Below are positions 6,341-28,152 of a stretch of DNA of 64,000 nt, piece after piece. The notes under the pieces were generated by a model, which did no database searches, had not been told where the DNA came from, and saw nothing but the letters and a program-made list of their open reading frames with translations. The DNA comes from a virus. The stretch lies in IMG/VR virus record IMGVR_UViG_3300042564_002372, positions 45,828 to 109,827 of that record, one strand, 5' to 3'. Each line of letters begins with the position of its first letter. The stretch's first letter is position 1. The translations under genes were made by a program, and so were the position numbers.

Positions 6341-9262
6341 TTACATGGATTTAATTGCCTTGACAAGAGCTCCGTTTTTACCTGTAGTCATCTTCTTCTG
6401 TTTTTCCTGAGCAACTTCCATTTGCTTTGCATACAATTCAATTTCCTTTGGAGTCATGTTTCCAAATGGTGTACCAGAATATCCTGATCCTTCTAAGTTA
6501 AACTGGGCAAGAGGATTCATATTCATTGCTCTGAAGCGTGGATCAAATCTGTAATTGTAAAGGTTTTCGTATGTTTGAAGGGTTCTGTTCTCAGCCTGGT
6601 TCTGTAGATATTTAGCAGAGATAGAATTGAGAGCAGCTTGAGTAATGGCCTTTGTATTAGAAAGAGCTTGTTGTTGTCTTCCGTATTGTTGATCAAGAAT
6701 TTGTAAATTTCCTAGACCAAAATCATTTAACATTTTTCTGTTATCAGCATACACTTGATTCTTCATAGCCTGATTTAACTTAAACTGCTCACCAAGAACT
6801 TTTTGATTGGCTGCATATTTCTGTGCATTCAACGCAGCTAATGCAGCTGGATTAAATCCAATCAATCTTTGAGCAGCTCTATAATCAGCTTGGTTTTGAT
6901 TAATATTCTCCTGTAGAGAAATATCAAACGGAACAGTTAGCTGTGGCTGTAAAGTTTGTGCTTGTACAGGCTCTAATTGATTTTGAGCAAGAGCTAGCAT
7001 CTCTCCAGATAGCTGACGTGGATCAAGAGCTTCTGCATCAGTTGGTCTAACATAAGGAAGAACTTGATTAACTATATTCATCCAATTAAATTTTTCTTCA
7101 GCAGCGGGCTTAGGTCTCTGTTTAATTCCTGCCTTATCAACACTTTCAGGAACTTTAATTTCTAAACTTCCTGGTCCTCTTTGCATTTCTCTTTTACCAA
7201 GTACATTAACTCCTGGTAAATTAATGTATTCTGGATAAGTCTGTAGTTGATTTTCTAACATGTATCTAACTCCAGGTTCCAATGCTAAAGCATTTCTGTA
7301 TATTTTATCGCTAATGTCTTCACCGCCTTGAGCTTTCTTAACCGAAGCTCCTTTCTTAGCCTTTTTCACTTTACCCTGTGCTAAATCATCAGCTACAAGA
7401 TTGTATTCTTCAGCAGTGTCATTAATAGCAGATTGTAGATTAGCTAGTTTTATTTTCTCATCAGCAATAGTCTTGAGCGTTTGATTTCCTCCATACGCAT
7501 TTGCTTTCAATGATTCGAAAGTGAGTAGGTCGTATGGACTAGTAACATTTAAGTTGTCAAGTTCTGTAACAGACTTATCGATAAGTTTATTTTGTTTCTG
7601 CTCAGTTTTAGATAGGTCAGCAACATAGTTTTTAAACTTCTTACCTGCTGCTTTAGGAATACCAATCATCTCAGCACCAAACTTTGGAACTTTTAAGTTA
7701 CCAAATACTGTAAGACTAGTATTTCCTGTACCATCTTTTAATTTAACAGCAGGTTCTTCTCCTTCCACTTCAACACTTGCTTTTCCAGTAGCAGCATCTG
7801 TACCGTATTCTGCATAATCTGTATAACTATCGTTTCCTGTATCACCAAAAGAAGCACCTATTCCAGTTCTTCCCTTTCCATCAGACTCATCATGAGAATT
7901 ACCTTTAAACATTACAGTTTCTCCTCCTTCAGGAAGATGATGATTATATGAAATAGGTTCTGCATATCCACCCCAATGAGTTTTAAGATCACCACCCATA
8001 GCAAATTTATCTCTTCCTGTATACATTGCACGTTCGCTAGGAGGGGTGTAACTTTTTAAATGTCCACCTGCACGTAGTGTATCCATTGTTGGATCTGGAG
8101 CAAACAATCTAGTTAATGGTATACCTTCAAGTTCTGTTGCCACCTGTGGATTTGCAATACCACCATCTCTCATATAAGAGTAGTTTTGTTGTTGCAGTCC
8201 TTGAGTGCCTTGATCAAAAGCCATCTGCTCAATGTTACTTTGAGTTTTTCTATTAGCAGCTTCTGTTTTTCTAACATTTCCGCTGCCTACAAGATTACCA
8301 AGAGTCTGACCAGCAAACTTTCCAATCATACCTCCAACTGGACCACCAAGCAATGTACCTGCTACACTTCCAATTCCAGCACCTACTTTTCCAGCACCAG
8401 TAACGCCATATCCTTTTGGACTTCCGAGTCCAGCAGTGAGTTGAGAAAGAGCATCTCCTCCTCCCTGTTCTTGAAACTTAAAGATGTCAGTTTTTTGACC
8501 AGACGAATTCATTTTCAAAAAATCAGGATTGGTTTTGAAGTTTGAAAACATACCACCATCAGCAGCTTCTTCCAAGTCTGTGTAAATAGTGTTAGGAGCA
8601 AATGTGTTTGCTATCTCTGTACCATTCTTTGCAACAGTGGTTCCTACGCCATAGATGGGAAAGAACTCTCCTCCTGTATTAATATTATCTTCTGGACGTA
8701 CATATTTTCTTTGAACTTGCTCAGGACGTGTCATAGAAGCTTTACGAGCAACACCACTAACTTCAGCCATTTGCTGTGCTTGTTGGCGCATGTCTTTTTC
8801 TTCGCCCATTTGTTGGATACCACTAACTACGTCACCAGCTGCTTGAGCAACAGCCATTGGTCCACCAGCTTTACCAACACCCTTACCAATTTTTCCAAAC
8901 ATGTCAGCCATGCCTGATTTACCCATTGGCATTGTCTCATCACCAAAAAGAGCCTTCTTCAACTTCTTGCCATTCTTAGCACCTTTCTGTTGTGAAGCAA
9001 GTTGTGCCATTTTTAAAGCTTCCTCATCACGCATATCTTGTGTTGAGCCAGTGATGAACATATCATTCTGGTCATACAACTGTTGAAAGTTGATTGGTTG
9101 AGGATTAAACTGAAGAGATGTATTTCCTTGAATCATAGCTCCCATCTGAGCTTTCTTCAAAGCTTTCCCATGAACCTTCATAAAAGATTCTTCTGTAGGG
9201 AATTTTTTGTAAAATTCTTTCTCAGACTTAACACCTGCTATCTTTAAAATTTCAGCCTTCAT
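6341..9262 (-). CDS. Putative internal virion cargo protein (973 aa) with glycine zipper and repeated A-x-x-G(G) linkers
   Basis: Gly zipper GAGIGSVAGTLLGGPVGGMIGKFAG; GNSHDES and EVEGEEP motifs; about 10 AQMG/AKNG/ADGG/AMGG/AQGG-type motifs; Q/N-rich C-terminus. Confidence 0.6.
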   Translation of the reverse strand: MKAEILKIAGVKSEKEFYKKFPTEESFMKVHGKALKKAQMGAMIQGNTSLQFNPQPINFQQLYDQNDMFITGSTQDMRDEEALKMAQLASQQKGAKNGKKLKKALFGDETMPMGKSGMADMFGKIGKGVGKAGGPMAVAQAAGDVVSGIQQMGEEKDMRQQAQQMAEVSGVARKASMTRPEQVQRKYVRPEDNINTGGEFFPIYGVGTTVAKNGTEIANTFAPNTIYTDLEEAADGGMFSNFKTNPDFLKMNSSGQKTDIFKFQEQGGGDALSQLTAGLGSPKGYGVTGAGKVGAGIGSVAGTLLGGPVGGMIGKFAGQTLGNLVGSGNVRKTEAANRKTQSNIEQMAFDQGTQGLQQQNYSYMRDGGIANPQVATELEGIPLTRLFAPDPTMDTLRAGGHLKSYTPPSERAMYTGRDKFAMGGDLKTHWGGYAEPISYNHHLPEGGETVMFKGNSHDESDGKGRTGIGASFGDTGNDSYTDYAEYGTDAATGKASVEVEGEEPAVKLKDGTGNTSLTVFGNLKVPKFGAEMIGIPKAAGKKFKNYVADLSKTEQKQNKLIDKSVTELDNLNVTSPYDLLTFESLKANAYGGNQTLKTIADEKIKLANLQSAINDTAEEYNLVADDLAQGKVKKAKKGASVKKAQGGEDISDKIYRNALALEPGVRYMLENQLQTYPEYINLPGVNVLGKREMQRGPGSLEIKVPESVDKAGIKQRPKPAAEEKFNWMNIVNQVLPYVRPTDAEALDPRQLSGEMLALAQNQLEPVQAQTLQPQLTVPFDISLQENINQNQADYRAAQRLIGFNPAALAALNAQKYAANQKVLGEQFKLNQAMKNQVYADNRKMLNDFGLGNLQILDQQYGRQQQALSNTKAITQAALNSISAKYLQNQAENRTLQTYENLYNYRFDPRFRAMNMNPLAQFNLEGSGYSGTPFGNMTPKEIELYAKQMEVAQEKQKKMTTGKNGALVKAIKSM

Positions 9263-9263
9263 A

Positions 9264-12200
9264 TCAGTTGTATTTATCCAGCCAGTTATCCTTGTCTGGG
9301 TTATTTGTAAAGTTAAGTAATTGATTTAATTTTTTCATTGGTTGGGCATCTAATTGATTGATTCCCAATTCAGCAACTGGATACTCTGTCACCTTCTTTC
9401 CTTTGAATTTATAATTCTTTCCTGGCTTCATAAGCTTTGTATCTCCTGCATCAGAAACACCAACAACATCGTAAGGAACTCCTTCCATAGTGATGTAGTT
9501 GCTATCAATCTCTGTCACTTTTCCAGGATGTGCCCATTGACCTCTGTTGTCTTTTATCACTCCTCCTTTTCTTTTCTTTGGAAGATAGAATCTATCATAT
9601 ATTTCAATAGGGTTCATCATTCTATTCAAAGCAGGATTATTAAAATCATACTTATCATAAATAGAAACATAAGAACCATCAGGACTCTTCTGTAATGTAA
9701 ATCTTTGTAAAGGATCTATATCTCCAAATTTTACATTCTTATCTGTGTCTGCATTTTCAGAATACCACTTACTATCTAAGATTGGTAACAAACCATTCAT
9801 TTCCATTTTCTCACCAGGTTTTAAATCCTTAGTGAGGTTCATCAACTCATAATCATCAATAACATCTCTGATAGTGTAATACTTAGCATCAGGATCTTTT
9901 GCTACAGAAGGTTTGTACTTTGACTCTTTTAGATATTGTCTTTCGCCAGGGATGTTCATTGCTGTTGCCCAGAACTCTTCAGCCAAGTGTGGTTTACCAC
10001 TTTTAGTTTTCAATGGTTCAGATTCATTACCCATTAAATAATTATATGCATATACAGGAAGTTTTAATGCATTAGGATAATCTACTGGCCTAACAGTTTT
10101 ATACACCTCTGTATTACTTAAAGGTTTTAACGCATTTAATAAACTAAGAGCCTTTGTTGTAACAGGATCAGATATTTCTTCAGATACAAACTTTGTTGCT
10201 TTTTTTGCAAAACTTTCTTCTCCACCATCCTGCATACTCTTTGGTTTCCAATCCAATCCATTCTGGTAGAATTTCATTTCTCCACCATTCTGTTTTTTAG
10301 GAACTTCATTCTTTGACTCTTCTGATTTTTCTTTAGCTTTTTTATGCATGTAGCTAGAACCACCTATTATTCCAGCTCCTGCAACGCCAGCTCCTTTAAA
10401 GTATTTGTTATTTTGAGCATTATTCCAATCTTTCAAAACATCCATTTGCTTTTCATCAGCAATCTTAGGTGTGCTAAGCATTACAGCATCAACTGCTTCA
10501 TTTTCTTTTGCTACACCTTTTGGAAAGCTTTGGACTTTCTCAATCAACTTATTATTGTTGTGATCAAAAAAGTTTCCAGCATCATCATAGTATATTCTAT
10601 TTTTTAAATCAAAAGGTGCTCCTCCAGTTAAAGAAGACACTTCAAATTCTTTTAATTTTTTTGGTAATCCTTTAATTGGTTGAAGAGGTTGTAAGTCCCA
10701 AGTGTCTGTGAAATCAACAAATTTTCTACCTTGTTCATCCACTCCTTTTGTAATCCATCCATTACCATGAACGGCACCAAAATTAAATTCTGGTCGAACT
10801 TCCATTGTCCCAAATGAAGACTTAGGATTATCAACTATAGATTGTAAATCTTCCTTTCCAATTCTAAAATCATTTATTGCTAATGTATTATCTGCATTTT
10901 TAGAAAATGTATCATAGTTAGGTTCTAATCCATTATATAATCTCCAAGCATCAAATCTATTTTTAGTAGCATGTGTCTTAGGTTTAAATTTTAAAAAATT
11001 TGGAGTTAGTAATTCTGCTGGGGAAGCTAAAACTGTAAAAGGATCATAGCCTATAGGTGTGATACTTCTATTTACAACTTCTCCTACTTGTTTTGTTAAA
11101 TTTTTACCAAGTTGTTTACCAACTAATTTAGATCCTCCCCCAATCAATGTTGGATCAATTGCTGATAGTCCAATGTTTGCAGCATTCTGTAAAAACCCTT
11201 CTGGATTTTCATAGCCTAGAACATCAGAAAGATCTCTTTGACTGCTTCCAAATTGTCCAAAGTTTGGATTTACATTACTGAAGTTATAAGGCTTACCTGT
11301 CAACATTGCAACAGTTTCTGCTAATGCTGCTGTAGGAACTTGCTCAAGCTTCATTAGGTTTTCAGGAATGCCATATAATGCTGCTGTTGTAAAGTCACGC
11401 AATGAGTCCATTGTGTAACTTCTAGGAGCTGTGACAGTTACTTCAGGTAAGTCAGGTAGAGTGAATGCACCATCATAGTATGTGCCCACTTGCCTGTTCC
11501 TATACATCTCTGGATAGCGGGGATCGTTTATAGATATTCTTTCTATGTCATCGCCCTTTTGCGCAGAAGGTATTCCTCCACCATTTTGAAATCCATCAAT
11601 TGGGTAGTATGATTTTCTACCATATACTTCACCAGTTTTTTCTCCAGACTTAGAGTTTATATAATTTGCAAGCTTCTTAGCAGTGGCAGCAGGACTCATG
11701 CTTTCAGTCTTTGTAGGTAGAGGTTGTGATTTAGGATATATTAATTCAACATCACCACTAGGATATACTCCTTCAATATCACTACTACTAATTACATTAG
11801 GTGAACTTGTTTGAGACATTACATCATAAGCTGTTTCTGCACCTAGTGCTCCAAGAAGACCTCTATTCCACAGCAATGAATTATTTGTCATTCCTTTCAC
11901 ATTACTAAAAAGCTCCAAATACCCTGTATCAGTTTTGTTTAAATTTATAGGGGAGTTGGCAGCACGTCTTGCTTGTTCTGTTAATGGATACAATGGATCG
12001 CCAGGTCTTAGCATCATTGCAGGTCTTCTAAAAGTGTTTGCTCCTAGGAATGTTGGTAAAGCAACACTAGCCAAATTAATTCCTGCATTTAAGTAATTAC
12101 CTCTATAAGCCTCATCAGCACCTTGTAATCCATCTACAATCATTCCAGCAATATTGCCAACTCTACCAACAGCTTGTGCAGTTGGATGAGGAATAAAGTT

Positions 12201-13565
12201 TCCCATTTGCATTACATCAGTTGCTACATCAGCATACCCAAGCCCTTGTCGTATCAATTCTTCGCCACGTCCAGGAGCTTGTTTTAGCTGAGGTAGGCTT
12301 TGTAGATATTTGAAATATTGATATTCTGGATTTTCTTTAAGTTCTAGTCCTGCAATTTTATTAGCAATATTAGTATCTATATTTGTTTCATCTTTTTCAA
12401 TCTTTTTTCCTTTCTGTGCTGAAGCCATTGTCTTCTTTGCATACTTTCCTTTGCTAGGAGCAGAACCAGCTGTACGTGCGTATGTAAATCCTACAGAGCC
12501 AGGAATAGACATACCACCCATTGCAATTGGTGTAATTTCTTCATCACCTTTAGCAATGATGTTCATTAGCTTGATAAAGTTTTCATCACCTGTCAACATG
12601 AGTGTTCTGTCAAGTGATTCATTATTCTTTAATTGTTTTTTTGCTTTATCCAGATCTTCTTTTGTAAACTCTTTACCTTTTCTAATATCATAAATATCTT
12701 TATCATACATTAGGAATCTAAGAGCATTTAAGTCAGATCTTAACTCACGAGGTTTTTCTAAATGTTGAGCATCTTGTACTTTTGACCAAAGTTCTGGAGT
12801 TAAAACTTTAGGAAGTTTCTTAGTCCAGTTTGGATCTATTGATGATCTTAGTAAATTAATTTCTTTACTACTAAGATCTGATTCGTATGTATCTATTGCA
12901 TGTGCAATTTCATGGGCCTTTACTGTATTTACATCTCCATCAAAATCTCTTGGATTAATATTAGCTACTCCCTCACCCTCAAAAAATTCAGATCTTTTTG
13001 TTGGATCATAGGTTATAGCACCTGGTCGTTGAAGCTTTTCTAGTTCTAGAAAGTTACTTCTCATTTCCCTATCAATTAAACCACCGCTATATGGATCAAG
13101 TATTTCATCTCCTGTAACAGGGCTATATTCAGGAAATTCTTGATAACCTGTTTCTATTTTTCTTCTTCTATATTCTGGACTAGTAATCCAAGATTTGAAA
13201 AACTCTACTGGATCTTTTGTTTTTTCTAAATAAGGAACTGTGGGTATAGGAGTATATTCAGGCATTCTAGCTGCTTGATCAAATGGAGAAGGATCTCTAA
13301 AGCCTTGTACAACCACTTCAGGAAGATTATATTGAGCTGCAATGCCCCTGTCCTTCTCCTCTTGCATTTTCTTATTCATGTAGGCAGTTACACCACCTTG
13401 AGCAATTGGAATAAGTTCACCACCATCTTGAAACTGTCCTCCCCATGCGGGAGAATAGTTTCTTCCTTTAGTGTTATATCCTAGTCCAACAAAGCCTTCA
13501 GGAAGGCTAACGTTTGAATCATTAGCGTTGTCTGCTTTCCCAAAGTTATCTAACCATCCTTTCAT
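9264..13565 (-). CDS. Modular (polyvalent-like) virion cargo protein (1433 aa) with zincin HEXXH module
   Basis: HEIAH at about 12900-12914 followed by a downstream Glu; modules separated by FQDGG/AQGG/AMGG/AQKG/FQNGG/KQNGG/MQDGG/KRKGG. Confidence 0.6.
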   Translation of the reverse strand: MKGWLDNFGKADNANDSNVSLPEGFVGLGYNTKGRNYSPAWGGQFQDGGELIPIAQGGVTAYMNKKMQEEKDRGIAAQYNLPEVVVQGFRDPSPFDQAARMPEYTPIPTVPYLEKTKDPVEFFKSWITSPEYRRRKIETGYQEFPEYSPVTGDEILDPYSGGLIDREMRSNFLELEKLQRPGAITYDPTKRSEFFEGEGVANINPRDFDGDVNTVKAHEIAHAIDTYESDLSSKEINLLRSSIDPNWTKKLPKVLTPELWSKVQDAQHLEKPRELRSDLNALRFLMYDKDIYDIRKGKEFTKEDLDKAKKQLKNNESLDRTLMLTGDENFIKLMNIIAKGDEEITPIAMGGMSIPGSVGFTYARTAGSAPSKGKYAKKTMASAQKGKKIEKDETNIDTNIANKIAGLELKENPEYQYFKYLQSLPQLKQAPGRGEELIRQGLGYADVATDVMQMGNFIPHPTAQAVGRVGNIAGMIVDGLQGADEAYRGNYLNAGINLASVALPTFLGANTFRRPAMMLRPGDPLYPLTEQARRAANSPINLNKTDTGYLELFSNVKGMTNNSLLWNRGLLGALGAETAYDVMSQTSSPNVISSSDIEGVYPSGDVELIYPKSQPLPTKTESMSPAATAKKLANYINSKSGEKTGEVYGRKSYYPIDGFQNGGGIPSAQKGDDIERISINDPRYPEMYRNRQVGTYYDGAFTLPDLPEVTVTAPRSYTMDSLRDFTTAALYGIPENLMKLEQVPTAALAETVAMLTGKPYNFSNVNPNFGQFGSSQRDLSDVLGYENPEGFLQNAANIGLSAIDPTLIGGGSKLVGKQLGKNLTKQVGEVVNRSITPIGYDPFTVLASPAELLTPNFLKFKPKTHATKNRFDAWRLYNGLEPNYDTFSKNADNTLAINDFRIGKEDLQSIVDNPKSSFGTMEVRPEFNFGAVHGNGWITKGVDEQGRKFVDFTDTWDLQPLQPIKGLPKKLKEFEVSSLTGGAPFDLKNRIYYDDAGNFFDHNNNKLIEKVQSFPKGVAKENEAVDAVMLSTPKIADEKQMDVLKDWNNAQNNKYFKGAGVAGAGIIGGSSYMHKKAKEKSEESKNEVPKKQNGGEMKFYQNGLDWKPKSMQDGGEESFAKKATKFVSEEISDPVTTKALSLLNALKPLSNTEVYKTVRPVDYPNALKLPVYAYNYLMGNESEPLKTKSGKPHLAEEFWATAMNIPGERQYLKESKYKPSVAKDPDAKYYTIRDVIDDYELMNLTKDLKPGEKMEMNGLLPILDSKWYSENADTDKNVKFGDIDPLQRFTLQKSPDGSYVSIYDKYDFNNPALNRMMNPIEIYDRFYLPKKRKGGVIKDNRGQWAHPGKVTEIDSNYITMEGVPYDVVGVSDAGDTKLMKPGKNYKFKGKKVTEYPVAELGINQLDAQPMKKLNQLLNFTNNPDKDNWLDKYN

Positions 13566-14927: not shown

Positions 14928-17900
14928 TTAAGATGGGCAATTACATTCAGGATCAAAACAGCCAACACCTTGTGACAAGAATCCACAATCATCACTTATG
15001 ACTTCAGTAACACATGCTATGAAACACAATCCTTCATCTTGAGGAGGTATATTGTAGGTAATTGTTACACCATTTTCATTCTTGAAGACAAATGTACATC
15101 CACCAAATGGAGCTGATGTTAATATATGACAATCAGCTGGTATCTGAGTAGTTGTTGTAGTTGTAGTTGTGCTTGTAGTAGTAGTTGTTGTTGGAGTAAT
15201 TGGATTTTCAGTAGTTGTTGTAGTTGTTGTAGGTGCCTCAGTAGTGGTGGTTGTGGTTGTAGTTGGGATAGTTGTTGTTGTAGTTGTAGTCCCACACGTT
15301 CCAGCAAACACTTGAGTTATCTCATTTGTATAATTTGTATGTGCACCTGATTGCAAAGAATACAAAGTGCTCAAATTACCATTTATATAATAGAAGCCAT
15401 TAGCATAATTTGTAAATGACCAGAATGGTTGAGGATTCGTAGTATCACAATTTACATCTATATCATATACAAAGAATGTATATCGAGGAGTGGCTGTAGT
15501 TGTAGTGGTAGTTGGAGGCGTAGCGGTAGTAGTTGTAGTGGTAGTAGTAGAACATGGAGTACCATTATCACTTGTGCTACCGCTTTGGAAGAACCAATAA
15601 TTTGTTCCATCAGAGTAGTATCCATCAGGTATAGGAGTGGTTAAACTACTATCAGTATATAAGAATGTACCACTTACAATATTAGGTCCATTAGTAGATG
15701 ATGCGTAGAATGTTGCTCTATTAAATGCAGCATAATCAGCACAAGCCAATGGTCCAGTACTTAAATTAGGAGTACTATTCAACAAGAAACTATAAAATGC
15801 TACTGTTGTCGTTGTTGTTGTAGTTGGGGTAGCAGTTGTTGTTGTCGTAGTAGTTGTTGGAGCAGCTGTAGTAGTTGTAGTTGTTGTAGAGCTTGTTGTA
15901 CTAGTAGTAGTTGTACTAGTAGTACTAGTTGACGTTGTAGTTGTTGTAGATGTGGAGGTTGTAGTAGTTGTTGGTCCAACCAAAATACAATCTAAAGATA
16001 CAATCACTCCAACACCTGCTAGAGAACAGTTTATCTCCCGAACTGTAGCTGTTATGTTACACTGCAAAGGAGCAACAGTAGTTGATGTTGTAGTTGTTGT
16101 TAATCTTGTAGTTGATGTTGTAGTGGTAGTAGTTGGATTAGCAACTAATGTTCCTACTAAGAAATCAAAGTCTTCACAGCAATTGTTTTGTCCAGAATAG
16201 AAGAAGTTATTCTCTGCAATATAGAAGTTTGGAAGATAGCTGTGAAAGCTTATCCAACTATTCGTGTTCATGTTAAAAGACAATGTCCACGATACATTGC
16301 AGAAGTATTCTTCATCACTAAGACTAATGTCTTGTCTGATGGTTAGACCATTGACAATATTGTTGATGTAGAAACTTTGTTCAACTGGATCATACAGAAT
16401 GTTTTTTGACTTTGGTGCATAATCAAGTTTTGTAATAATCACTCTATCGTATACAGCATCATAGACACCATGTAATCCTATTCCTTTGAAGTGATTATCA
16501 ATATTCACTTCTGGGAAATTTTTGTAGATTATAAATGGTAGATGCTCAACAAAGAATCTATTCATTCCTGATCCAAATCCAGACAAGTCAGTCACTTGTG
16601 TTCCTTGAATTAAGAACACTTGTGCCCTCTTTGCATCCACTGTAATCTGACCTTGAGGAATCTTCAAAAGCATTCTATGCTGACTTCCCACATACCCAAG
16701 ATCAGTTTCTGCAAAGTCAATTGGAGGAGCACCTCTAAACAATAATGGATTACCTACATAAGCAGCTTGAGGGTTGCTTGTGTCAATAGTCAATAGATTA
16801 TTGTACAACAATGTCTTATTCTCAAATCTGGCCAGAATAGCTTTATTCTGTATACCATCTAGGCTTATAAGATTTCCATAGTTCTGTGGGAAATCAAAGT
16901 AAGAAATAGCTCTGTAGATGAGCCAGTTGTTCACTCTGTTGTCAGCATCGATATTCTGAGCATCAGAATAGATTGTTCTGAATGGGTAGTTTGTGAAACA
17001 AAGTCTCGCTTCCCAGTCAGGAGGTAGGTGAGTGAATGTGTTCTCTCTATTTTGCTTTGAGAATGTTGTATTGTAGTAATAGGTATTGTCTTGAGCAATA
17101 GGAACAAAGCTCTGTTGCAACCAGTCATCTGGAATGTCTGTACTAACATGTGGCCAGAAGTCTCCCTCTCTATTGTTAAACGCTTGTCTTAAATCAAGAT
17201 TGTAAGAGCTCTCGCAATAGAAGTTTGGAATGCCATAGGCAAACAGATAGAAGTAACCATCGTAATATGTAATAGTTGAGCTTGGTGTTACTCCTCCAGA
17301 TCCACCTTGAGGGAAAGTTGTACTAGTGGTAGTGGTGGTAGATGTAGATATAATCACATCTGTTCCCACCTCATTAGGACAGTCGAAGTTGTGTGCTTTG
17401 TAAGAAATGATGTTAGCCATCACTCCTTGTCCAGGAATGCTGTAGTTCTCGAGAATTGATCTCGCAGAGTGCCAGTATCTAGGATATGCAACGTTACCTA
17501 TCTCATCATAGAAGATGTCGCTATCATCAGGAGCGTTCACTCTGTTATCAATAAAGAATGGAAGCTTTGTTTTGAATGCGAATCTGCTAATAAATGTGTC
17601 ACCACCAAACACAGTGGTGGTTGGATTAGGTGAGTTAATTATGTATTGATAACCTGTATCAATTGTTTCGTATGAATAGATTTGTCCCCACTGATTGATA
17701 ATCATGTCTTTCAGTGATGCATAATATGAAACAACCTGTATCGGTTCTTCCTTAGCTGGTGTTCCACAGTTTCCTATTTCTGAAATAGTGAATCTTGATC
17801 TATCTGAAACAATACTTGTTGTTCCAGAAAGCATGTTTGGACTCTGGTTAGGAAATGGTAAAGCTGTAGTGTCTTCGTTTGTTTTTACAAAGACAGAGCT

Positions 17901-20621
17901 TTCTCTGTTCCAGTTATTGATTGGTAAATCATCACCAACAGCTTGTACACCTGGAATTAAATATCTAGATATGTCGAGTTCTCTTTGTTTGATTCCTTGA
18001 TTATCAGGAACACCTACGCCATAATTATAGTCAGCTATAGAGTTAAAAGAGTAAGCATAATTCTTTCTAGTGATGCCATTGATATAGATAGTTAAATAAG
18101 ACTGATATGCAGTGAACATAGCTGTTGCACTGAATGGTGTAGTGATACCTCCAAGTCTAGCAGAACTATCAAGAGCAGCCTTTTGTGCAGCTTCAGAGAG
18201 CAATTTATATTTAGCATTGTCTTTCACTTCTACAAAGTGAGCTTTACCAGTACCAAACATTACACTTTCAAGCTTGAGAATGTCTGCTAGGAATGGTTGA
18301 CCAAATGATGTCTCTGGGGAGTTGAAGATTTGTCTATATCTATTCTCATCTTTAAAACCATCAAGTAGTGTTGTGTTACCACAATTTGCGTCAGATCTCA
18401 CTTTTGATATCAAACGTATTTGAGAAGTTGCACAATCTGCTGTACATATCACTGCTGTATCAGCAACTACCTCAACAGTAACTTCTGAAGCACCAACACT
18501 TCTAACTGTTGGTCCTAAAAATCTATCATCATAAGATGCTGTAAATGTAGCAAGTGCATAATCATCTAATTCATAGACATCATAGTCAGCATATCCTACA
18601 TCGCCTGCACCAATGATAATTGTTGGCTTTCCAACAGAGCAAATCTCGTCATTCTGTATAGAAGTGTAATCCTTGTAGACAAGTTTGTTATTCTCGCAAG
18701 AATAGTATTGAATTCTAGCCAATGGAGCACCAGTAATTAGGTCAATTCCTAGGCTAGTGATGATTACATCAAATGGCTTACACTCACTCTGGTAAGCATT
18801 GTTTGTTGTTGTAAGGAATGGATCTTCGTTAAGATCGTTGTAAGGATAGTTAGGGAAATAGAACGATTGTTCTTCTCTTTGATACTCACCAACGTTTCTT
18901 AAAATACCTTTAGCAACAATAGACTTATTAACACTTCTATCACCACGAACAATCTTAAATCCTACAATGTCAGCTTTCTGATCATCTGTAAGATTTGATA
19001 TTTGAATTAGATTTAATATTTGAGAAGGATCAAGTTTTACACCAATAGGAAATACAGCATCATTCCCCATCACCATTGATTGTGGTGTGGAGAACACTTT
19101 ACTTTCATAAATAGCTGAGATGTTTACATCTGGGAACTTGTGGTGTCTGATTTTTTGTCCTGCAAGGTTTCCCCACACGTCTGTGTTGCATGGATACTCT
19201 TCAACAGATTCCCAATAGGCAAATTCGCCAAATTGATATGGTCCTTTGTAAGCATCATTTGCTGAATATTCTGAAGAGAATCCTGTGACAGAAGCTGTGT
19301 TATAAATCTTCCAATACGGTGCATCATTAGTTAATGGGTCTGGTTCTCCTATAAAATCTGGGTTAGTATCAGGGATTCTTGGCAAGAGTTGCTCAAAAGA
19401 TGTAATAGCTCTACCTGGAATGTGAAAACCATCTGTTTGTTTTCCATTCTTCAATAGAAATACAATCTCAAAAGCATACACTTCATCACGAAGATATCCT
19501 CTTAGATTCGTTGCGTTTATTTCGTTTGCGTAGTTCTCTGTTGGAGGAATTCTCCAAGATTCCCATTGCAATGTAATTTGACTAGCAATTTGTTGATAGT
19601 TGATTCTATCAATAGACGTTAACTGATCCCATACAAGAACATCTTGGACAGCAGTTAAGTCTTGAGCAATCTCATAGAATGGAAACTTCTCAAAGATGTC
19701 AGCAATGTCAAGAACAATTGTTGATTGACCTGTGTATGTAATCTGTCTAATACTGTTGTCAATAAAGTATGTACCAACAAGATCAACAGATGTTACACCA
19801 TTGATTGTTTTGATTACAGCAAGATTGAAATATTCAAATTGTCCAGTTGTATCAAGGTTGTCAATAGTAACAACAATAGACTTTCCTACAGGATAGTTGA
19901 AGTTAACTGATGTAATAAACTCATCAGCAATAGGTGTAGGATTGGTAACTGAGTAGTAGGATGTGAATGGATTACCAGCTGGATCAGAATACTGAATAGC
20001 AAACTGATATGTACCAGCAATAAGGTTTCCACCACTAACAACGTCAGTGATTACTATCTCAGGAATGTTAAAGTTAGGCTGAAGCTTGAGTTGATTACAA
20101 TCAAGATCATCTGTATAGATTGGGCTACAAAGAGGACTTCCTGATCTAAGAATCTTAGGAATGTCATCAATGTCCAAGTATCTTCTAGGGTTGTAACCAT
20201 CTGTCCAATAAATCTCTGTATTACAGTTTGTGATTCTGTGGACAATCTTATGTATAGGATAGTTGATGTTGAAGTTTAAGCAAGGAGCATTTACCAACAC
20301 TCTATACACACAATCATTATTATCCATGTAGCCAATCTGGCTATCTCCTGTGGAGGGATTAGTAATGAAGAATATGTGTTTGTTCTTTTCTATAATGAAG
20401 TGCTCACCTATAACAACAAATCCTTCAGGTACACGAAGACAAAATTCGTTACCAGATTCGTTCTGATAGTTTACAGAATTAGAATCAAAGTTTTCAACAG
20501 CAGCGTTTAGAGCATAAGTTAGCCTCCCCTTTTGAATTTGATTCAGTGACTGATCAAGATTCAATCCTGTAGTGGCATTGTTATACTCCTGTCTGACGTT
20601 ACCTTCTTCTTGCTCAGCCAT
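14928..20621 (-). CDS. Tail stabilization/nozzle protein (P22 gp10-like, crAss-type) with Thr-rich C-terminal extension (1897 aa)
   Basis: Beta-rich; LTYALNA..EN, IYWTDGYNPRRYLDID, GTYQFAIQY, RGYLRDEVYAFEIVF and WISFHSYLPNFY motifs; follows the ring-protein genes. Confidence 0.7.
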   Translation of the reverse strand: MAEQEEGNVRQEYNNATTGLNLDQSLNQIQKGRLTYALNAAVENFDSNSVNYQNESGNEFCLRVPEGFVVIGEHFIIEKNKHIFFITNPSTGDSQIGYMDNNDCVYRVLVNAPCLNFNINYPIHKIVHRITNCNTEIYWTDGYNPRRYLDIDDIPKILRSGSPLCSPIYTDDLDCNQLKLQPNFNIPEIVITDVVSGGNLIAGTYQFAIQYSDPAGNPFTSYYSVTNPTPIADEFITSVNFNYPVGKSIVVTIDNLDTTGQFEYFNLAVIKTINGVTSVDLVGTYFIDNSIRQITYTGQSTIVLDIADIFEKFPFYEIAQDLTAVQDVLVWDQLTSIDRINYQQIASQITLQWESWRIPPTENYANEINATNLRGYLRDEVYAFEIVFLLKNGKQTDGFHIPGRAITSFEQLLPRIPDTNPDFIGEPDPLTNDAPYWKIYNTASVTGFSSEYSANDAYKGPYQFGEFAYWESVEEYPCNTDVWGNLAGQKIRHHKFPDVNISAIYESKVFSTPQSMVMGNDAVFPIGVKLDPSQILNLIQISNLTDDQKADIVGFKIVRGDRSVNKSIVAKGILRNVGEYQREEQSFYFPNYPYNDLNEDPFLTTTNNAYQSECKPFDVIITSLGIDLITGAPLARIQYYSCENNKLVYKDYTSIQNDEICSVGKPTIIIGAGDVGYADYDVYELDDYALATFTASYDDRFLGPTVRSVGASEVTVEVVADTAVICTADCATSQIRLISKVRSDANCGNTTLLDGFKDENRYRQIFNSPETSFGQPFLADILKLESVMFGTGKAHFVEVKDNAKYKLLSEAAQKAALDSSARLGGITTPFSATAMFTAYQSYLTIYINGITRKNYAYSFNSIADYNYGVGVPDNQGIKQRELDISRYLIPGVQAVGDDLPINNWNRESSVFVKTNEDTTALPFPNQSPNMLSGTTSIVSDRSRFTISEIGNCGTPAKEEPIQVVSYYASLKDMIINQWGQIYSYETIDTGYQYIINSPNPTTTVFGGDTFISRFAFKTKLPFFIDNRVNAPDDSDIFYDEIGNVAYPRYWHSARSILENYSIPGQGVMANIISYKAHNFDCPNEVGTDVIISTSTTTTTSTTFPQGGSGGVTPSSTITYYDGYFYLFAYGIPNFYCESSYNLDLRQAFNNREGDFWPHVSTDIPDDWLQQSFVPIAQDNTYYYNTTFSKQNRENTFTHLPPDWEARLCFTNYPFRTIYSDAQNIDADNRVNNWLIYRAISYFDFPQNYGNLISLDGIQNKAILARFENKTLLYNNLLTIDTSNPQAAYVGNPLLFRGAPPIDFAETDLGYVGSQHRMLLKIPQGQITVDAKRAQVFLIQGTQVTDLSGFGSGMNRFFVEHLPFIIYKNFPEVNIDNHFKGIGLHGVYDAVYDRVIITKLDYAPKSKNILYDPVEQSFYINNIVNGLTIRQDISLSDEEYFCNVSWTLSFNMNTNSWISFHSYLPNFYIAENNFFYSGQNNCCEDFDFLVGTLVANPTTTTTTSTTRLTTTTTSTTVAPLQCNITATVREINCSLAGVGVIVSLDCILVGPTTTTTSTSTTTTTSTSTTSTTTTSTTSSTTTTTTTAAPTTTTTTTTATPTTTTTTTVAFYSFLLNSTPNLSTGPLACADYAAFNRATFYASSTNGPNIVSGTFLYTDSSLTTPIPDGYYSDGTNYWFFQSGSTSDNGTPCSTTTTTTTTATPPTTTTTTATPRYTFFVYDIDVNCDTTNPQPFWSFTNYANGFYYINGNLSTLYSLQSGAHTNYTNEITQVFAGTCGTTTTTTTIPTTTTTTTTEAPTTTTTTTENPITPTTTTTTSTTTTTTTTQIPADCHILTSAPFGGCTFVFKNENGVTITYNIPPQDEGLCFIACVTEVISDDCGFLSQGVGCFDPECNCPS
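15150..16135 (-). repeat. Poly-Thr (mucin-like) coding tracts
   Basis: (GTA/GTT/GTG)n runs on the + strand are mixed ACN codons; several tracts separate small Cys-bounded domains. Confidence 0.85.
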
Positions 20622-23304: not shown

Positions 23305-26300
23305 TTATAATGCTGCTGCTCCTATTGTAAATAGTGCTCCATTAATTTCAACAATTATTTGATGTGTCTCACCTGGCTGAGTTCCTATTACTGCTCTTCC
23401 TAATTTCCAAAATCCAGAAACATACCCTGTATCAAGAACTCCTGTTCTAATGGCTCCATTTATCTCTAATTTAGCTCCTGTACTTGTTGTCGTTCCAATC
23501 AGCACGTTGCCACCAGTAGTAATTGATAAATAATTAGTTGGCCAACTTGAAAATGTACTTGGTGAATTATTTGCTCTATATCCTATTCCAAAAGAATCTG
23601 CAACTCCCCAAGCAGCGGTTACCTGACCTATAGCCCAACTATGATTGGACACATTGCTATAAAATAAAACAGAAGGTCTGTCACCACCTGTTGAACCTGT
23701 AGAAAAATCAGATACAATACCATAACTATGATTACCCTCTCCATTTCTAACTTTCAATGCAGGAAAATAAACTCCACCAGCAGATTTGCTGTTGTTTATA
23801 TTTACTAAACCTTCATTGTTTGTGGAATCACCAATAACAGATAATCTTGATAATGGGCTAGTAGTTCCAATACCAACATTTCCATTCTCAGCAATAGTTA
23901 ATTTTGCATCTGCTAGTGTTGCACTACCAGCACTACCTTGAGGACCATTTAAAATATGTATCTTACCCTGTGCATCATTAGCCGTTAAGTCTGTTCTTTG
24001 AAATACAATAGCAGACTTTCTATATGCAGTGTTGGATTCTCTATATCCAAAATGGATACCTGACCACTGACCAATCCCCATTTGAGAAACCCCTACAGAA
24101 ACAAAATCATTAATATTTGATATTGCTTCCAAAGGTTTTTGAGGACTAATTGTTCCTACACCTACATTTCCATAAAATACAGAACTTTGATCTCCTCTAA
24201 AATCAGCAACATTTATAGGAACAGCATTACCTGTAGTACCTGGATATGCTCTAATTCTTAAAGTATTAGTTACGGCAGATCCTGCTGTTACAGTTGCATC
24301 TATACCAATCCATCTATTTACAGCTCCTGTTCCACTTTGTAAATCTGCTGCAAATCCGTATTTAATTAAATTTTCAAAACTCCCATCAACCCCACTAACA
24401 CTGCAATATTTTGCTATTTCTCCTGCTACTGAAAGTCTTTGAGCAGGATTAGTGGTATTAATTCCAACATTGCCATCTTGAAAAGCATACAACATTGAGG
24501 AGCCTGTAAACTTTATAGTGAATCCGTTTGAATATCCACTTTGTCCTGCTAAAAATATATCTCTTGCTCCTCCTGCTGAACCAACAGCAACAAGTCCATA
24601 TCCTGAAGTTCCTGTTGAAGTTATTATAGCAGCATTAGCACTTGATGAAGCTAAAAATTGTGCAGCCGTCACACTACTTGAAAAGCTAGCATTTCCTGTA
24701 TTTGGTACAATACGTAAAACGGTATTATTATTAGCTACATCATAAATACTAAAGTCACTATTATTAGCAGCATTTAGACCACCTACTAAATCCCAACTAT
24801 TACCACTTGTGCTATTTTGTAGTCTTAATCTTACGTTTGATTGGTCGTTATCATTAACAATAAGTGAAGGTGTTGCAACTCCACTAACTCCAAATAAAGC
24901 TTTTTTTGCCTGAACACTATTGCTAAAGGTTGCTGCGCCTGATGTATTAATTGTTAATAAATCAGAATATGATATTGTATTTCCTGCTGTTCCTGCGGCA
25001 TATCTTATCCTAAATAAATTTGCATTCCCAAAATCTGCCATCCAAGATGTATCAGTTACTTTAAACTGATAGGTATTGCCTGTTGAAGTATATTGAATGT
25101 TGTATCCTAATGCTGGATATCCACCTCCTGATAGACCTAAATCTACAGTACCAATCGTATTTGTAACTGCTGAAATATTCCCAGCAGATATGTTTCCGTT
25201 AACCTGCAACCTTTGCCCAGCGTCTGTAGTTGTGTTTACAAGTAGGTTTCCAGCTGAACTCATCACCATTCTAGCAGTAGATGCTGTTATATCATAAAGA
25301 TAAAATGAGCCTGAAAAACTACCATTTGCAGACCCAGCTACAGATAATTCATAAGCTCTGCTACTTGTGTTAACTATTGCTAAAACTGTTTGTGATGTAT
25401 TACTACTTGATAATCTTAATCCTGGACTTGTCCCATTTTGAAAAGCACTTCCAAAAATTTCAACTAAGGCAGTTGTATTGCTTGCAGTACCAATACCAAC
25501 ATTTGTTCCATTATCAAATATGTTACTATTACCAATAGAACTTGTGCCTGTAAACTTAGATAAATAGTTAGTTGTACCAGTTCCTGTAACTGTTCCGCCT
25601 CCATCTATTACCTCGATAACATTACCTGAAGAATCAACAGCTAAATTACGAGTTGCAGTTCCTGTAAATGTGCCTGCTCCATAAGCGTTAAGCCTTAACC
25701 CTCCTGAACCATTTATTCTTAATCTTGTGCTACTATCAAGAGCTGACCATGAATTTGCTATTTTAAAACTATCTCCATCAGAATTATCGATGCCTGCACT
25801 CCACCCAATAACACCGTTAATATCCCAAGAAAGAATTGGATCACCCCCTCCTGCCCCTGATGTTCTTAATGCTAAAAATGTATTTGCAGTTGTAATTGAA
25901 CTATTAGTATTATGAATATAAATACCAGGAACATCACTTGAAGCAGGAGATGTATAAGTTGAACCTGAACCTTCAATATGTAATTTAGCTAATGGAGTAA
26001 TTGTACCAAGTCCTATGTTTGTTCCATTGTCAAATAGTAAACTATTCCCAATTGTTGTAGAGCTTGTAAATTTAGTTATTGTGTTAGTTGTTCCAGAAAC
26101 TGCTACAGAGGTTCCAGAACTTCCTGATGTACCTCCACTGCCATTTGTTCCACTAGTACCACTAGTACCTCCAGTGCCTGATGTTCCGCTAGTACCTGTG
26201 GTACCAGATGAACCACTGGTGCCAGCTGTACCGCTAGTACCAGAAGTGCCACTCGTACCTGTTGTTCCAGATGTTGCACTTGTTCCTGACGTACCACTAG

Positions 26301-28152
26301 TTCCACCTGTTCCGTTAGTAGCTGATGTTCCACTGGTTCCACTTGAACCAGAAGTCCCTGTAGTACCTGATGTTCCTGAGGAGCCACTGGTGCCAGTAGT
26401 TCCACTCGTACCGCTTGATCCACTTGTTCCATCTATTCCACTACTGCCAGATGATCCACTACTACCAGATGTGCCAGTTGTACCACTGGTACCTGAGCTA
26501 CCGCTAGTGCCTGTAGTACCTGAAGTTCCAGCTGTTGCGCTAGTACCTGAGGTGCCGCTTGTTCCAGATGAACCATCTCCACCTGTAGCACCATCAAGAT
26601 TGACTTGCCATGTGCTGTATGTACCAGAACCAGTTAGTCTAAATACTATAAAGCTTAATGCCCCTGTTGATGGGTTGTAAGAAACAACTTCAGCCTCGTT
26701 GTGATTATTTGCATCGTATGCAATAATTATAGATTGTGCTACAGTGTATGCTAGTCCAAGACCCACTGTAATGGTTCCTGAGTTCCCTGGTGCTTGTAGT
26801 GTGTATGTTGAGCTTGATGTAGTGGCAAATCTATCTCCAGATAAGCCAGAAGAACCTGATGTACCAGTCGTTCCACTAGTACCTGCTGTACCACTTGTTC
26901 CAGTAGTACCGCTCGTGCCACTAGTCCCACTAGAGCCTGTTGTACCACTAGAGCCACTTGTACCATTACTACCATCAAGACCAGTAGTTCCGCTAGTTCC
27001 AGAGCTACCACTTGTTCCAGTGGTTCCACTTGTCCCTGAACTACCAGATGTACCTGTAGTGCCTGAAGAACCAGATGTTCCTGTTGTTCCACTTGATCCT
27101 GAGGTTCCAGTGCTTCCACTAGTTCCACTTGTACCACTAGACCCTGAAGTACCGCTAGTACCATCTGTTCCGCTAGTTCCACTAGTTCCTGTTGTACCTG
27201 AACTTCCTGATGAGCCTGAAGTACCAGTGGTACCACTACTTCCTGAAGTACCAGATGTACCAGATGTACCAGTGCTACCTGAAGTACCGCTACTACCTGA
27301 TGTTCCTCTTGTACCTGAGGTACCAGAGGTTCCTGCTGATCCTGTGCTACCAGATGTACCTGAGGTTCCAGCTGTACCACTTGTACCTGCTGGGCCTGGG
27401 ACATAGCCAAGAATTGTATATATATCAAGATCAGTTATAGGGCTCGCTGCTGTAACTAATCCTTTTGCATTTACAGAAAACTTTAATGGCGTTACACTTG
27501 TGTATGGATTAGCATTTGCATTTTGTAATGTAAGTGTTATTGTGCTCTGTGTAAAGCCTGTACCTACCACATCTCCTGTGAATGTAATGGCTTGTGGAGA
27601 AACTACTAATGGTGTTGTTGTAAGACTTGTAACTAATCCTTTAGCATTAACTGTTACCACTGGAATCAATTGGCTAGCACCAAATGTTCCTGGGTTTATA
27701 TTTACAGTGTTGAGTGTGAAAGCTACAGCACCAGGGCCTGTTGCTACACCATCACCAGAAAGAGCTGTGATGTAGTTTCCTGGAGGTTGGAAAGATGAGC
27801 TGTCTAGTGTACCATCACCTTTAACGAATTGAGAGGATGTACCACCTGTTGTTATATGTCTTGCAGCCTGAACATTACCCTGTAGTGTAAGTGTGAAATT
27901 TCCTGCGATGGTTGTGTTCTGAATTAAACTACCACCTAACTGCACTGGTTGACTTAATCCTGATTGAATTAAACCATTGTTGAAGATGTAACCCATCTGA
28001 GCATTTGTAAATGCTTGGTTAATCTTCTGTAAAGCAGTTTGGAAACTGTCGTTTGTATTTACACCAATATATAATAAATTCTCACCTTCATAGAAAACGC
28101 AAGAAGATGATAATAAAAGAGGGCATGGCTCAGATCCACATATAACGCTCAT
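23305..28152 (-). CDS. Long tail fibre / receptor-binding protein with collagen-like G-T-S shaft (1615 aa)
   Basis: Two long (G-S/T-S/T)n blocks; repeated GNVGIGTTSP-type fibre motifs; Cys-containing N-terminal module shared with two neighbouring genes. Confidence 0.8.
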   Translation of the reverse strand: MSVICGSEPCPLLLSSSCVFYEGENLLYIGVNTNDSFQTALQKINQAFTNAQMGYIFNNGLIQSGLSQPVQLGGSLIQNTTIAGNFTLTLQGNVQAARHITTGGTSSQFVKGDGTLDSSSFQPPGNYITALSGDGVATGPGAVAFTLNTVNINPGTFGASQLIPVVTVNAKGLVTSLTTTPLVVSPQAITFTGDVVGTGFTQSTITLTLQNANANPYTSVTPLKFSVNAKGLVTAASPITDLDIYTILGYVPGPAGTSGTAGTSGTSGSTGSAGTSGTSGTRGTSGSSGTSGSTGTSGTSGTSGSSGTTGTSGSSGSSGTTGTSGTSGTDGTSGTSGSSGTSGTSGSTGTSGSSGTTGTSGSSGTTGTSGSSGTSGTTGTSGSSGTSGTTGLDGSNGTSGSSGTTGSSGTSGTSGTTGTSGTAGTSGTTGTSGSSGLSGDRFATTSSSTYTLQAPGNSGTITVGLGLAYTVAQSIIIAYDANNHNEAEVVSYNPSTGALSFIVFRLTGSGTYSTWQVNLDGATGGDGSSGTSGTSGTSATAGTSGTTGTSGSSGTSGTTGTSGSSGSSGSSGIDGTSGSSGTSGTTGTSGSSGTSGTTGTSGSSGTSGTSATNGTGGTSGTSGTSATSGTTGTSGTSGTSGTAGTSGSSGTTGTSGTSGTGGTSGTSGTNGSGGTSGSSGTSVAVSGTTNTITKFTSSTTIGNSLLFDNGTNIGLGTITPLAKLHIEGSGSTYTSPASSDVPGIYIHNTNSSITTANTFLALRTSGAGGGDPILSWDINGVIGWSAGIDNSDGDSFKIANSWSALDSSTRLRINGSGGLRLNAYGAGTFTGTATRNLAVDSSGNVIEVIDGGGTVTGTGTTNYLSKFTGTSSIGNSNIFDNGTNVGIGTASNTTALVEIFGSAFQNGTSPGLRLSSSNTSQTVLAIVNTSSRAYELSVAGSANGSFSGSFYLYDITASTARMVMSSAGNLLVNTTTDAGQRLQVNGNISAGNISAVTNTIGTVDLGLSGGGYPALGYNIQYTSTGNTYQFKVTDTSWMADFGNANLFRIRYAAGTAGNTISYSDLLTINTSGAATFSNSVQAKKALFGVSGVATPSLIVNDNDQSNVRLRLQNSTSGNSWDLVGGLNAANNSDFSIYDVANNNTVLRIVPNTGNASFSSSVTAAQFLASSSANAAIITSTGTSGYGLVAVGSAGGARDIFLAGQSGYSNGFTIKFTGSSMLYAFQDGNVGINTTNPAQRLSVAGEIAKYCSVSGVDGSFENLIKYGFAADLQSGTGAVNRWIGIDATVTAGSAVTNTLRIRAYPGTTGNAVPINVADFRGDQSSVFYGNVGVGTISPQKPLEAISNINDFVSVGVSQMGIGQWSGIHFGYRESNTAYRKSAIVFQRTDLTANDAQGKIHILNGPQGSAGSATLADAKLTIAENGNVGIGTTSPLSRLSVIGDSTNNEGLVNINNSKSAGGVYFPALKVRNGEGNHSYGIVSDFSTGSTGGDRPSVLFYSNVSNHSWAIGQVTAAWGVADSFGIGYRANNSPSTFSSWPTNYLSITTGGNVLIGTTTSTGAKLEINGAIRTGVLDTGYVSGFWKLGRAVIGTQPGETHQIIVEINGALFTIGAAAL
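26103..27400 (-). repeat. Gly-X-Y (GTS/GSS/GTT) 9-bp-period coding repeats in two blocks
   Basis: Blocks at about 26840-27400 and 26103-26580, separated by a ~85-aa non-repeat domain; the opposite strand gives spurious PxV ORFs. Confidence 0.9.

Follow-up and report, generated by a model that had tools for sequence, protein, structure and literature searches.

Candidate TonB-box mimics behind linkers of predicted cargo proteins in a crAss-like phage

TonB-dependent transporters of Bacteroidota of the SusC/RagA type, such as BT1763, share the common consensus L-x-E-V-V-V-T-G/A, carried on a flexible segment ahead of the domain that is acted on. Across 100 SusC-like transporters of B. thetaiotaomicron, the TonB box reads DEVVV(V/T/I), and that of BT1763 is 82-DEVVVTG-88. 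Group B colicins and TonB-dependent pyocins carry a TonB box in a disordered N-terminal region, and the TonB of the target cell imports the protein. Entry of phages T1 and phi80, via FhuA, also needs host TonB; there, TonB acts on the receptor's own box, and no TonB box is known to be borne by the phage. Here, we describe three octapeptides, LPEVVVQG, LPEVTVTA, and LPGVNVLG, in a 64,000-nucleotide window (the right-hand 64 kb of the 109,827-bp IMG/VR virus record IMGVR_UViG_3300042564_002372) that belongs to a crAss-like phage. They lie in two proteins, P0001 and P0002, encoded downstream of the muzzle protein gene. From the sequence evidence, we judge it somewhat probable that the TonB boxes of host transporters are mimicked by the short linear motif L-[P/D]-E-V-[V/T]-V-x-[G/A], which would serve ejected proteins as a handle or tether. 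Unlike the SusC/RagA boxes, the phage motif has neither a Plug domain nor a barrel behind it, occurs up to three times per chain, and shows a strong Pro at position 2 in the P0001 family. It would also differ from the bacteriocins, which have one N-terminal box and are threaded through a receptor, whereas the phage carrier would be delivered by the tail and bears multiple boxes at internal positions, each with its own module.

All three octapeptides reported in a first-pass annotation of this DNA are present on the minus strand, with the coordinates of the first shifted by one base. Motif 1, LPEVVVQG, spans 13302..13325 (P0001 aa 81 to 88); motif 2, LPEVTVTA, spans 11427..11450 (P0001 aa 706 to 713); and motif 3, the degenerate LPGVNVLG, spans 7196..7219 (P0002 aa 682 to 689). 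Their proposed placement at module starts, shortly after an AQxG linker, was likewise recovered. An AQGG linker (13392..13403; P0001 aa 55 to 58) stands 23 aa ahead of motif 1, an AQKG linker (11553..11564; P0001 aa 668 to 671) stands 34 aa ahead of motif 2, and a second AQGG linker (7322..7333; P0002 aa 644 to 647) stands 34 aa ahead of motif 3, all on the minus strand. Among 150 instances in the families, 147 follow a QxGG or AQxG linker, at a median distance of 32 aa (interquartile range, 22 to 35), compared to 121 aa for random positions. When the pattern LP[EDG]V.V.. was searched in the whole 109.8-kb genome, no further real coding frame was found to carry it; the remaining regular-expression matches were antisense frames of collagen-like genes. 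One of these, at 23305-28152 on the minus strand, encodes a 1615-aa collagen-repeat tail fiber, and its antisense LP(E/D)VPV runs give rise to false matches. Linkers of the hydrophobic/Q-x-G-G type recur in known or presumed virion proteins of unrelated Bacteroidota phages, namely, P0001, P0002, and their homologues, crAss001 gp45 (L002), and phi17:2 gp041 (L003:8351-11038); examples are FQDGG, MQDGG, AQGG, and the longer AQNGQEMRFYQNGLDWKPKSMQxGG. In the virion proteins of phi17:2, FQxGG linkers are present and no TonB-like motif was found.

For comparison with genuine boxes, we built a reference matrix from 28 transporters of five Bacteroidota genomes, none of which had been picked via the motif. 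The box of each transporter was taken as the best match to the BT1763 box at most 45 aa upstream of the Pfam Plug domain, and the resulting matrix reads L-[D/N/E]-E-V-V-V-[T/I]-G. It was applied to 33,193 octamers from 84 open reading frames (ORFs) of the phage; the matrix represents Bacteroidota, the presumed host group. LPEVVVQG (16.9 bits) and LPEVTVTA (13.5 bits) ranked first and second of the 33,193 octamers, the next best scoring 10.5 bits, and both fall within the range of genuine boxes, whose leave-one-out median is about 15.6 bits. LPGVNVLG scored 1.3 bits (rank 184), which is no significant match on its own. The likeness to Bacteroidota TonB boxes that had been claimed for all three octapeptides was thus upheld for motifs 1 and 2 and not for motif 3.

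Judged by sequence, motifs 1 and 2 are far beyond chance. Val/Thr-rich octamers are frequent, and the count of octapeptide families in IMG/VR given below is near a rough chance estimate, both of which would suit a chance likeness, with the octapeptide being an ordinary β-strand at the edge of folded domains. Nevertheless, the top two ranks in the proteome, the 50-fold enrichment over shuffles, the invariance of the motif amid variable flanks, its loss along with a removable indel, and the low confidence of its predicted structure make such a coincidence highly improbable.

We also scanned a bacterial genome collection for the DNA pattern coding for LPEVVVTG, the form common in P0001 homologues, and obtained at least 120 matches. 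Among the 120 matches listed, 46 lie directly ahead of a Plug-like domain, counted without the motif itself, and these 46 span Bacteroidota, Gemmatimonadota, Proteobacteria, and Verrucomicrobiota. The Plug was verified by Pfam in five cases, with the motif about 15 aa ahead of it. Since LPEVVVTG stands ahead of Plug domains in bacteria, the phage-type octapeptide itself is a bona fide TonB box. No TonB_C domain was found in the phage genome, that is, no phage-encoded partner, which we count in favor of a mimic directed at the host. Two Bacteroidota proteins of the BlaR1/M56 family also contain LPEVVVTG (L016:4862-6109 and L083:1933-3972, both on the minus strand); one of the pair has its own TonB_C domain, and the other combines an amidase with a Plug-like end.

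P0001 has 380 homologues with shuffled architectures, many with an SLT lytic transglycosylase domain and some with a YkuD or ART-PolyVal domain. Motif counts cover 120 of these 380. A simple regular expression found 82 instances, one to three per protein, and the matrix at ≥12 bits gave 103 matches compared to 2.05 in shuffles, counts that overstate the number of events because the proteins counted are related to one another. Across 23 aligned N-terminal modules, L81 to V86 are invariant, while the surrounding stretch is variable. Positional conservation among homologues, on which the first-pass annotation had made its proposal depend, is therefore borne out by the alignment and by these counts. 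The motif forms a constant element between changing flanks and is followed by at least five unrelated sequences: the zincin module described below; PRSYTMDSLRDF...; KDERIKEAMSQG...; YDEQYPFYQSLS...; and a YkuD L,D-transpeptidase module. An upstream block, ISINDPRYPELYKNRQVG...LPD, is joined to differing downstream modules. A conserved premotif block, ISINDPRYPEMYRNRQVG..., lies at 11475..11552 on the minus strand, and the same block plus motif stands ahead of two different downstream modules. Its consensus is ISINDPRYPE(L/M)Y(K/R)NRQVG..YDGA..LPD; it always accompanies the motif and might act as an additional binding element.

Only 63 relatives emerged when the stretch surrounding motif 2 served as the query in an exhaustive HMMER search of 1.84 billion representatives. 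Distant relatives carry LDEVVVTG, LDEVTVTG, LDEVTVTA, LDEVVVTA, LDEVVITA, or LGEVTVTA at the motif 2 position, scoring up to 24 bits. The changes tolerated at position 2 (P/D/N/G), position 7 (T/S/Q), and position 8 (G/A) match those of real boxes. Three possible stand-alone genes, P0242, P0246, and P0257, have the motif 39 to 71 aa from the N terminus; P0242 begins within MQRGG, which resembles a linker, and its gene call might be truncated. P0058, a P0001 homologue in which SLT is combined with an ART-PolyVal ADP-ribosyltransferase module, lacks the TonB-like motif.

The modular setting also suits an element internal to the phage, either a docking strand by which cargo modules are kept attached to some virion component while they are packaged or a junction motif for recombination or processing, comparable to VENN in CdiA and DPxGL in Rhs toxins; its likeness to TonB boxes would then be incidental. 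The position of the motif coincides exactly with recombination junctions, one upstream block being joined to different modules, and its DNA is often CTT CCT GAR GTN GTT GTA, so that part of the conservation is at the nucleotide level. Moreover, in a Chitinophaga protein (L030/L101), the octapeptide follows DPTGL, which resembles the end of an Rhs core. An internal or junction role nonetheless leaves unexplained the L at position 1, the E-V-x-V, and the G/A at position 8, as well as the finding that two copies are the best TonB-box matches of the whole proteome. Furthermore, the motif drifts solely to residues that the TonB-box consensus allows (P to D, N, or G), synonymous variation is present in its DNA, and 24 bases are short for homologous recombination. 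We regard a phage-internal role as rather unlikely.

Homologues of P0002 number 1467, and motif counts again cover 120. At the motif 3 position, this family shows NLPEVSVLG, NLDEVTVSA, DLDEVVVKG, LDEAVVTA, and LSPVDVTG; 34 of the 120 proteins score ≥10 bits there, and about 25 are without the motif. At ≥12 bits, 22 matches were found at this single position, compared to 1.45 in shuffles, and all matches of ≥8 bits lie 278 to 319 aa from the C terminus.

In the AlphaFold2 model of P0001 aa 1 to 420 (23-row alignment), the predicted local distance difference test score (pLDDT) is <50 for aa 1 to 102 and about 21 to 30 for motif 1; the best-folded part, aa 212 to 338, is helical and zincin-like, with a pLDDT of 70 to 90. 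In the model of P0001 aa 660 to 830 (40 rows), motif 2 is a coil with a pLDDT of about 45, and only the premotif block at 11475-11552 reaches 62 to 82. In the relatives L125 to L128, a segment of about 35 aa from the N-terminal module, comprising a helix plus the motif, is missing, and the downstream domain is kept. The models suggest that the motif region is likely disordered, although low AlphaFold2 confidence is no proof of disorder because the alignments are shallow. Burial in a folded domain, the outcome that the first-pass annotation had named as contrary to its proposal, is not predicted by these shallow-alignment models, and the segment is removable by an indel.

The module behind motif 1 carries the zincin signature HEIAHAID (12891..12914, minus strand; P0001 aa 218 to 225), of which H218, E219, H222, and D225 are invariant in the alignment of N-terminal modules (n = 23). 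HEIAHAID fits the phage-type MPTase of polyvalent proteins, in which HExxH is followed by a D three residues on (Iyer et al. 2017, PMC5512222). The zincin module had no Pfam match, and a Foldseek search of the N-terminal model against the PDB gave nothing with E < 2. This module could be a processing protease for the linkers. The octapeptide might be a protease site at which the polyprotein is cut into modules, either of the T4 prohead type, L-x-E, or as a substrate of the protein's own zincin. The cleavage consensus of T4 gp21 is L/I-x-E, which L-P-E would fit. P0001 does carry the conserved HExxH...D module, and polyvalent proteins have been proposed to be autoprocessed (PMC5512222). On the other hand, the primed side, V-x-V-x-G/A, is as conserved as the side preceding the Glu, which is unusual for protease sites, and a cut after E would break the conserved unit. 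Variants without the Glu, LSPVDVTG and LPGVNVLG, occur, and the phage genome yielded no prohead protease of the S77 or S78 type. A role as a cleavage site is, in our estimate, distinctly improbable.

If the motif mimics a TonB box, it would act from a disordered linker, 10 to 40 aa after QxGG/AQxG and ahead of successive modules. After ejection through the muzzle, the unfolded chain would reach the periplasmic side of the outer membrane, where each box would pair, as a β-strand, with the C-terminal domain of a TonB-family protein of the host. The TonB-ExbBD motor, driven by the proton motive force, would then act on the cargo one module at a time, by pulling or at minimum by tethering. The process would be akin to the import of group B colicins and pyocins, here with one handle per module. 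Exposure of the boxes by cleavage, as the first-pass annotation had envisaged, would not be needed, because, in a chain extruded unfolded, boxes at internal positions could be bound too.

A TonB binder might instead be a decoy or anchor that blocks host uptake or superinfection via TonB-dependent receptors or keeps wall-acting modules in the periplasm. The sequence evidence for such a function is identical to that for a handle on ejected cargo, and in one homologue the motif lies directly ahead of a YkuD (L,D-transpeptidase) module, which acts in the periplasm. SLT modules, which also act there, are nonetheless without a motif ahead of them. Copies per virion would be few, the crAss001 estimate being at most 12 copies for each of the small cargo proteins (PMC10172136), and TonB paralogues are many in Bacteroides, with 11 in B. 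thetaiotaomicron (PMC10350073). Because few copies would be delivered to cells with many TonB paralogues, titration of TonB is unlikely, and we consider a decoy or anchor improbable.

The muzzle protein gene (14928..20621, minus strand; Pfam PF25731 crAss_MUZ, E = 1.2e-31) defines the cargo gene block. After it, on the same strand, come a gene for a 293-aa protein, P0001 (9264..13565; 1433 aa), P0002 (6341..9262; 973 aa), and a gene for an 896-aa protein, after which a very long ORF begins. P0001, the second gene after the muzzle gene, encodes a mosaic polyvalent-type protein, and P0002 occupies the slot of crAss001 C1 (gp45), a likeness of position. In crAss001, the slot downstream of the muzzle holds the cargo proteins C1 (gp45) and C2 (gp46) and virion RNA polymerase subunits (PMC10172136). 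By analogy with this synteny, P0001 and P0002 are most likely carried in the virion and ejected via the muzzle. They resemble C1 and C2 in lying after the muzzle and before the virion RNA polymerase genes and in their x-G-G linker-rich composition; they differ in sequence and in carrying a TonB-box-like motif. The gene order around P0001 is kept in 9 related viral contigs when an alignment serves as the query, while a search with P0001 as a single protein found no related loci in bacterial genomes or viral contigs. Pfam gave nothing for either cargo protein except a below-threshold DUF456 match. A protein search of a phage genome collection with P0001 found only the zincin-like module, shared with Cellulophaga phage phi17:2, and the same search with P0002 found nothing, so that no cultured relative came to light beyond this one shared module.

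Polyvalent proteins (PMC5512222), which are large mosaics delivered with the DNA, are also similar to the predicted cargo protein P0001: the HExxH plus D of their zincin MPTase is matched by the zincin-like signature of P0001, and P0001 homologues carry ART-PolyVal and lysozyme/transglycosylase modules. Consistent with membership in this class, unrelated effector domains (SLT, YkuD, and ART-PolyVal) are shuffled among the P0001 homologues. The polyvalent-protein survey (PMC5512222) makes no mention of TonB, and Pfam is blind to the zincin module here.

A scan of IMG/VR for the LPEVVVTG pattern returned 47 stretches, none of them from this crAss-like lineage. Sixteen of the 47 belong to a family of 600- to 985-aa proteins (GC content, 0.51 to 0.57) with the motif at about aa 36 to 50 in a Pro/Gly/Ala-rich N terminus, and seven belong to a 370- to 390-aa family with the motif at about aa 53 to 63. 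At the one locus examined per family (L174 and L207), the gene lies directly upstream of that for a gp16-like internal virion protein (phrog_6651), within a block of virion genes. L174 shows the full T7-type order of tail tubular A, tail tubular B, small proteins, internal virion proteins, and fiber; at L207, identification was limited to the internal virion protein and the fiber gene. The carrier genes at these loci are L174:7306-9123 and L207:9295-10446, both on the minus strand; there are about 20 similar IMG/VR loci, and one of the families matches Pfam GP88 (PF17338). Three of the 47 are tape measure proteins. These carriers (L169:574-4200, plus strand; L192; and L204), from low-GC viral contigs, have the motif near aa 765, with a Lys-rich stretch behind it. 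At three other viral loci, the octapeptide lies inside what looks like a folded tail-fiber chaperone (S74-type) domain; we take these cases to be coincidence, and they would also suit the reading of a chance likeness.

The concentration of LPEVVVTG in ejected proteins is suggestive, and because unrelated T7-like phages have the tag in their internal-virion-protein slot, its reach may extend beyond the crAss-like lineage. We put forward, tentatively and with more doubt than belief, that host-matched TonB boxes are general in proteins ejected before the DNA by phages of double-membraned bacteria. The carriers would be crAss-type polyvalent cargo, T7-type internal virion proteins, and tape measure proteins. 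Pulling by TonB-ExbBD, driven by the proton motive force, would unfold these proteins and bring them out through the tail and across the outer membrane, with several boxes per chain serving as successive handles, one for each module.

A number of observations weigh against a TonB-box mimic and keep our confidence in it modest. Among these are the low score of motif 3, the dependence among the homologous sequences counted, the shallow alignments behind the structure models, and the junction position and nucleotide-level conservation of the motif, all described above. In addition, Val/Thr-rich strands are frequent docking elements. Several close relatives (L126, L127, and L132) have weak boxes or none; because some close relatives are without it, the motif is not essential for ejection in this lineage, within which it looks accessory. 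The virion-cargo status of P0001 and P0002 draws on synteny with crAss001. BLASTP gave no significant similarity between P0002 and crAss001 gp45 (E = 0.26) or between the 896-aa protein and gp46 (E = 1.8), so that "cargo" is here a label of position only, and no TonB-box-like motif was found in crAss001 gp45 to gp47. Finally, the octapeptide occurs in about 11 families in IMG/VR, which is not significant alone because about 5 chance occurrences are expected, a rough estimate from assumed residue frequencies and an assumed database size rather than one computed by a tool.

We found no publication that describes a TonB box in phage ejection or virion proteins. The crAss001 atlas (PMC10172136) does not mention TonB, and other papers go no further than to suggest, from docking, that TonB-dependent transporters serve as crAss receptors. 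Podoviruses transfer megadaltons of unfolded protein across the envelope before their DNA, and the energy is usually ascribed to capsid pressure. If the motif does act as a TonB box, a host motor would be a second energy source, and phage entry would be linked mechanistically to bacteriocin import. Moreover, tonB/exbBD alleles and TonB paralogue repertoires would then shape host range and resistance in Bacteroidota.

Two minor observations concern the carrier proteins. In the Chitinophaga protein (L030:1032-3602, plus strand; also L101), LPEVVVTG lies 11 residues after NNPLIMNDPTGL, a motif similar to the end of Rhs cores, so that the octapeptide would stand where a C-terminal toxin tip begins; Pfam found no family in the L030 ORF. 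This case, if real, may point to TonB boxes carried on toxin domains that are delivered in Bacteroidota. The ends of P0001 are near-invariant across its mosaic family (MKGWLDNFGK... at the N terminus and ...DNWLDKYN at the C terminus), while the middle is shuffled, and these ends may serve in docking or packaging.

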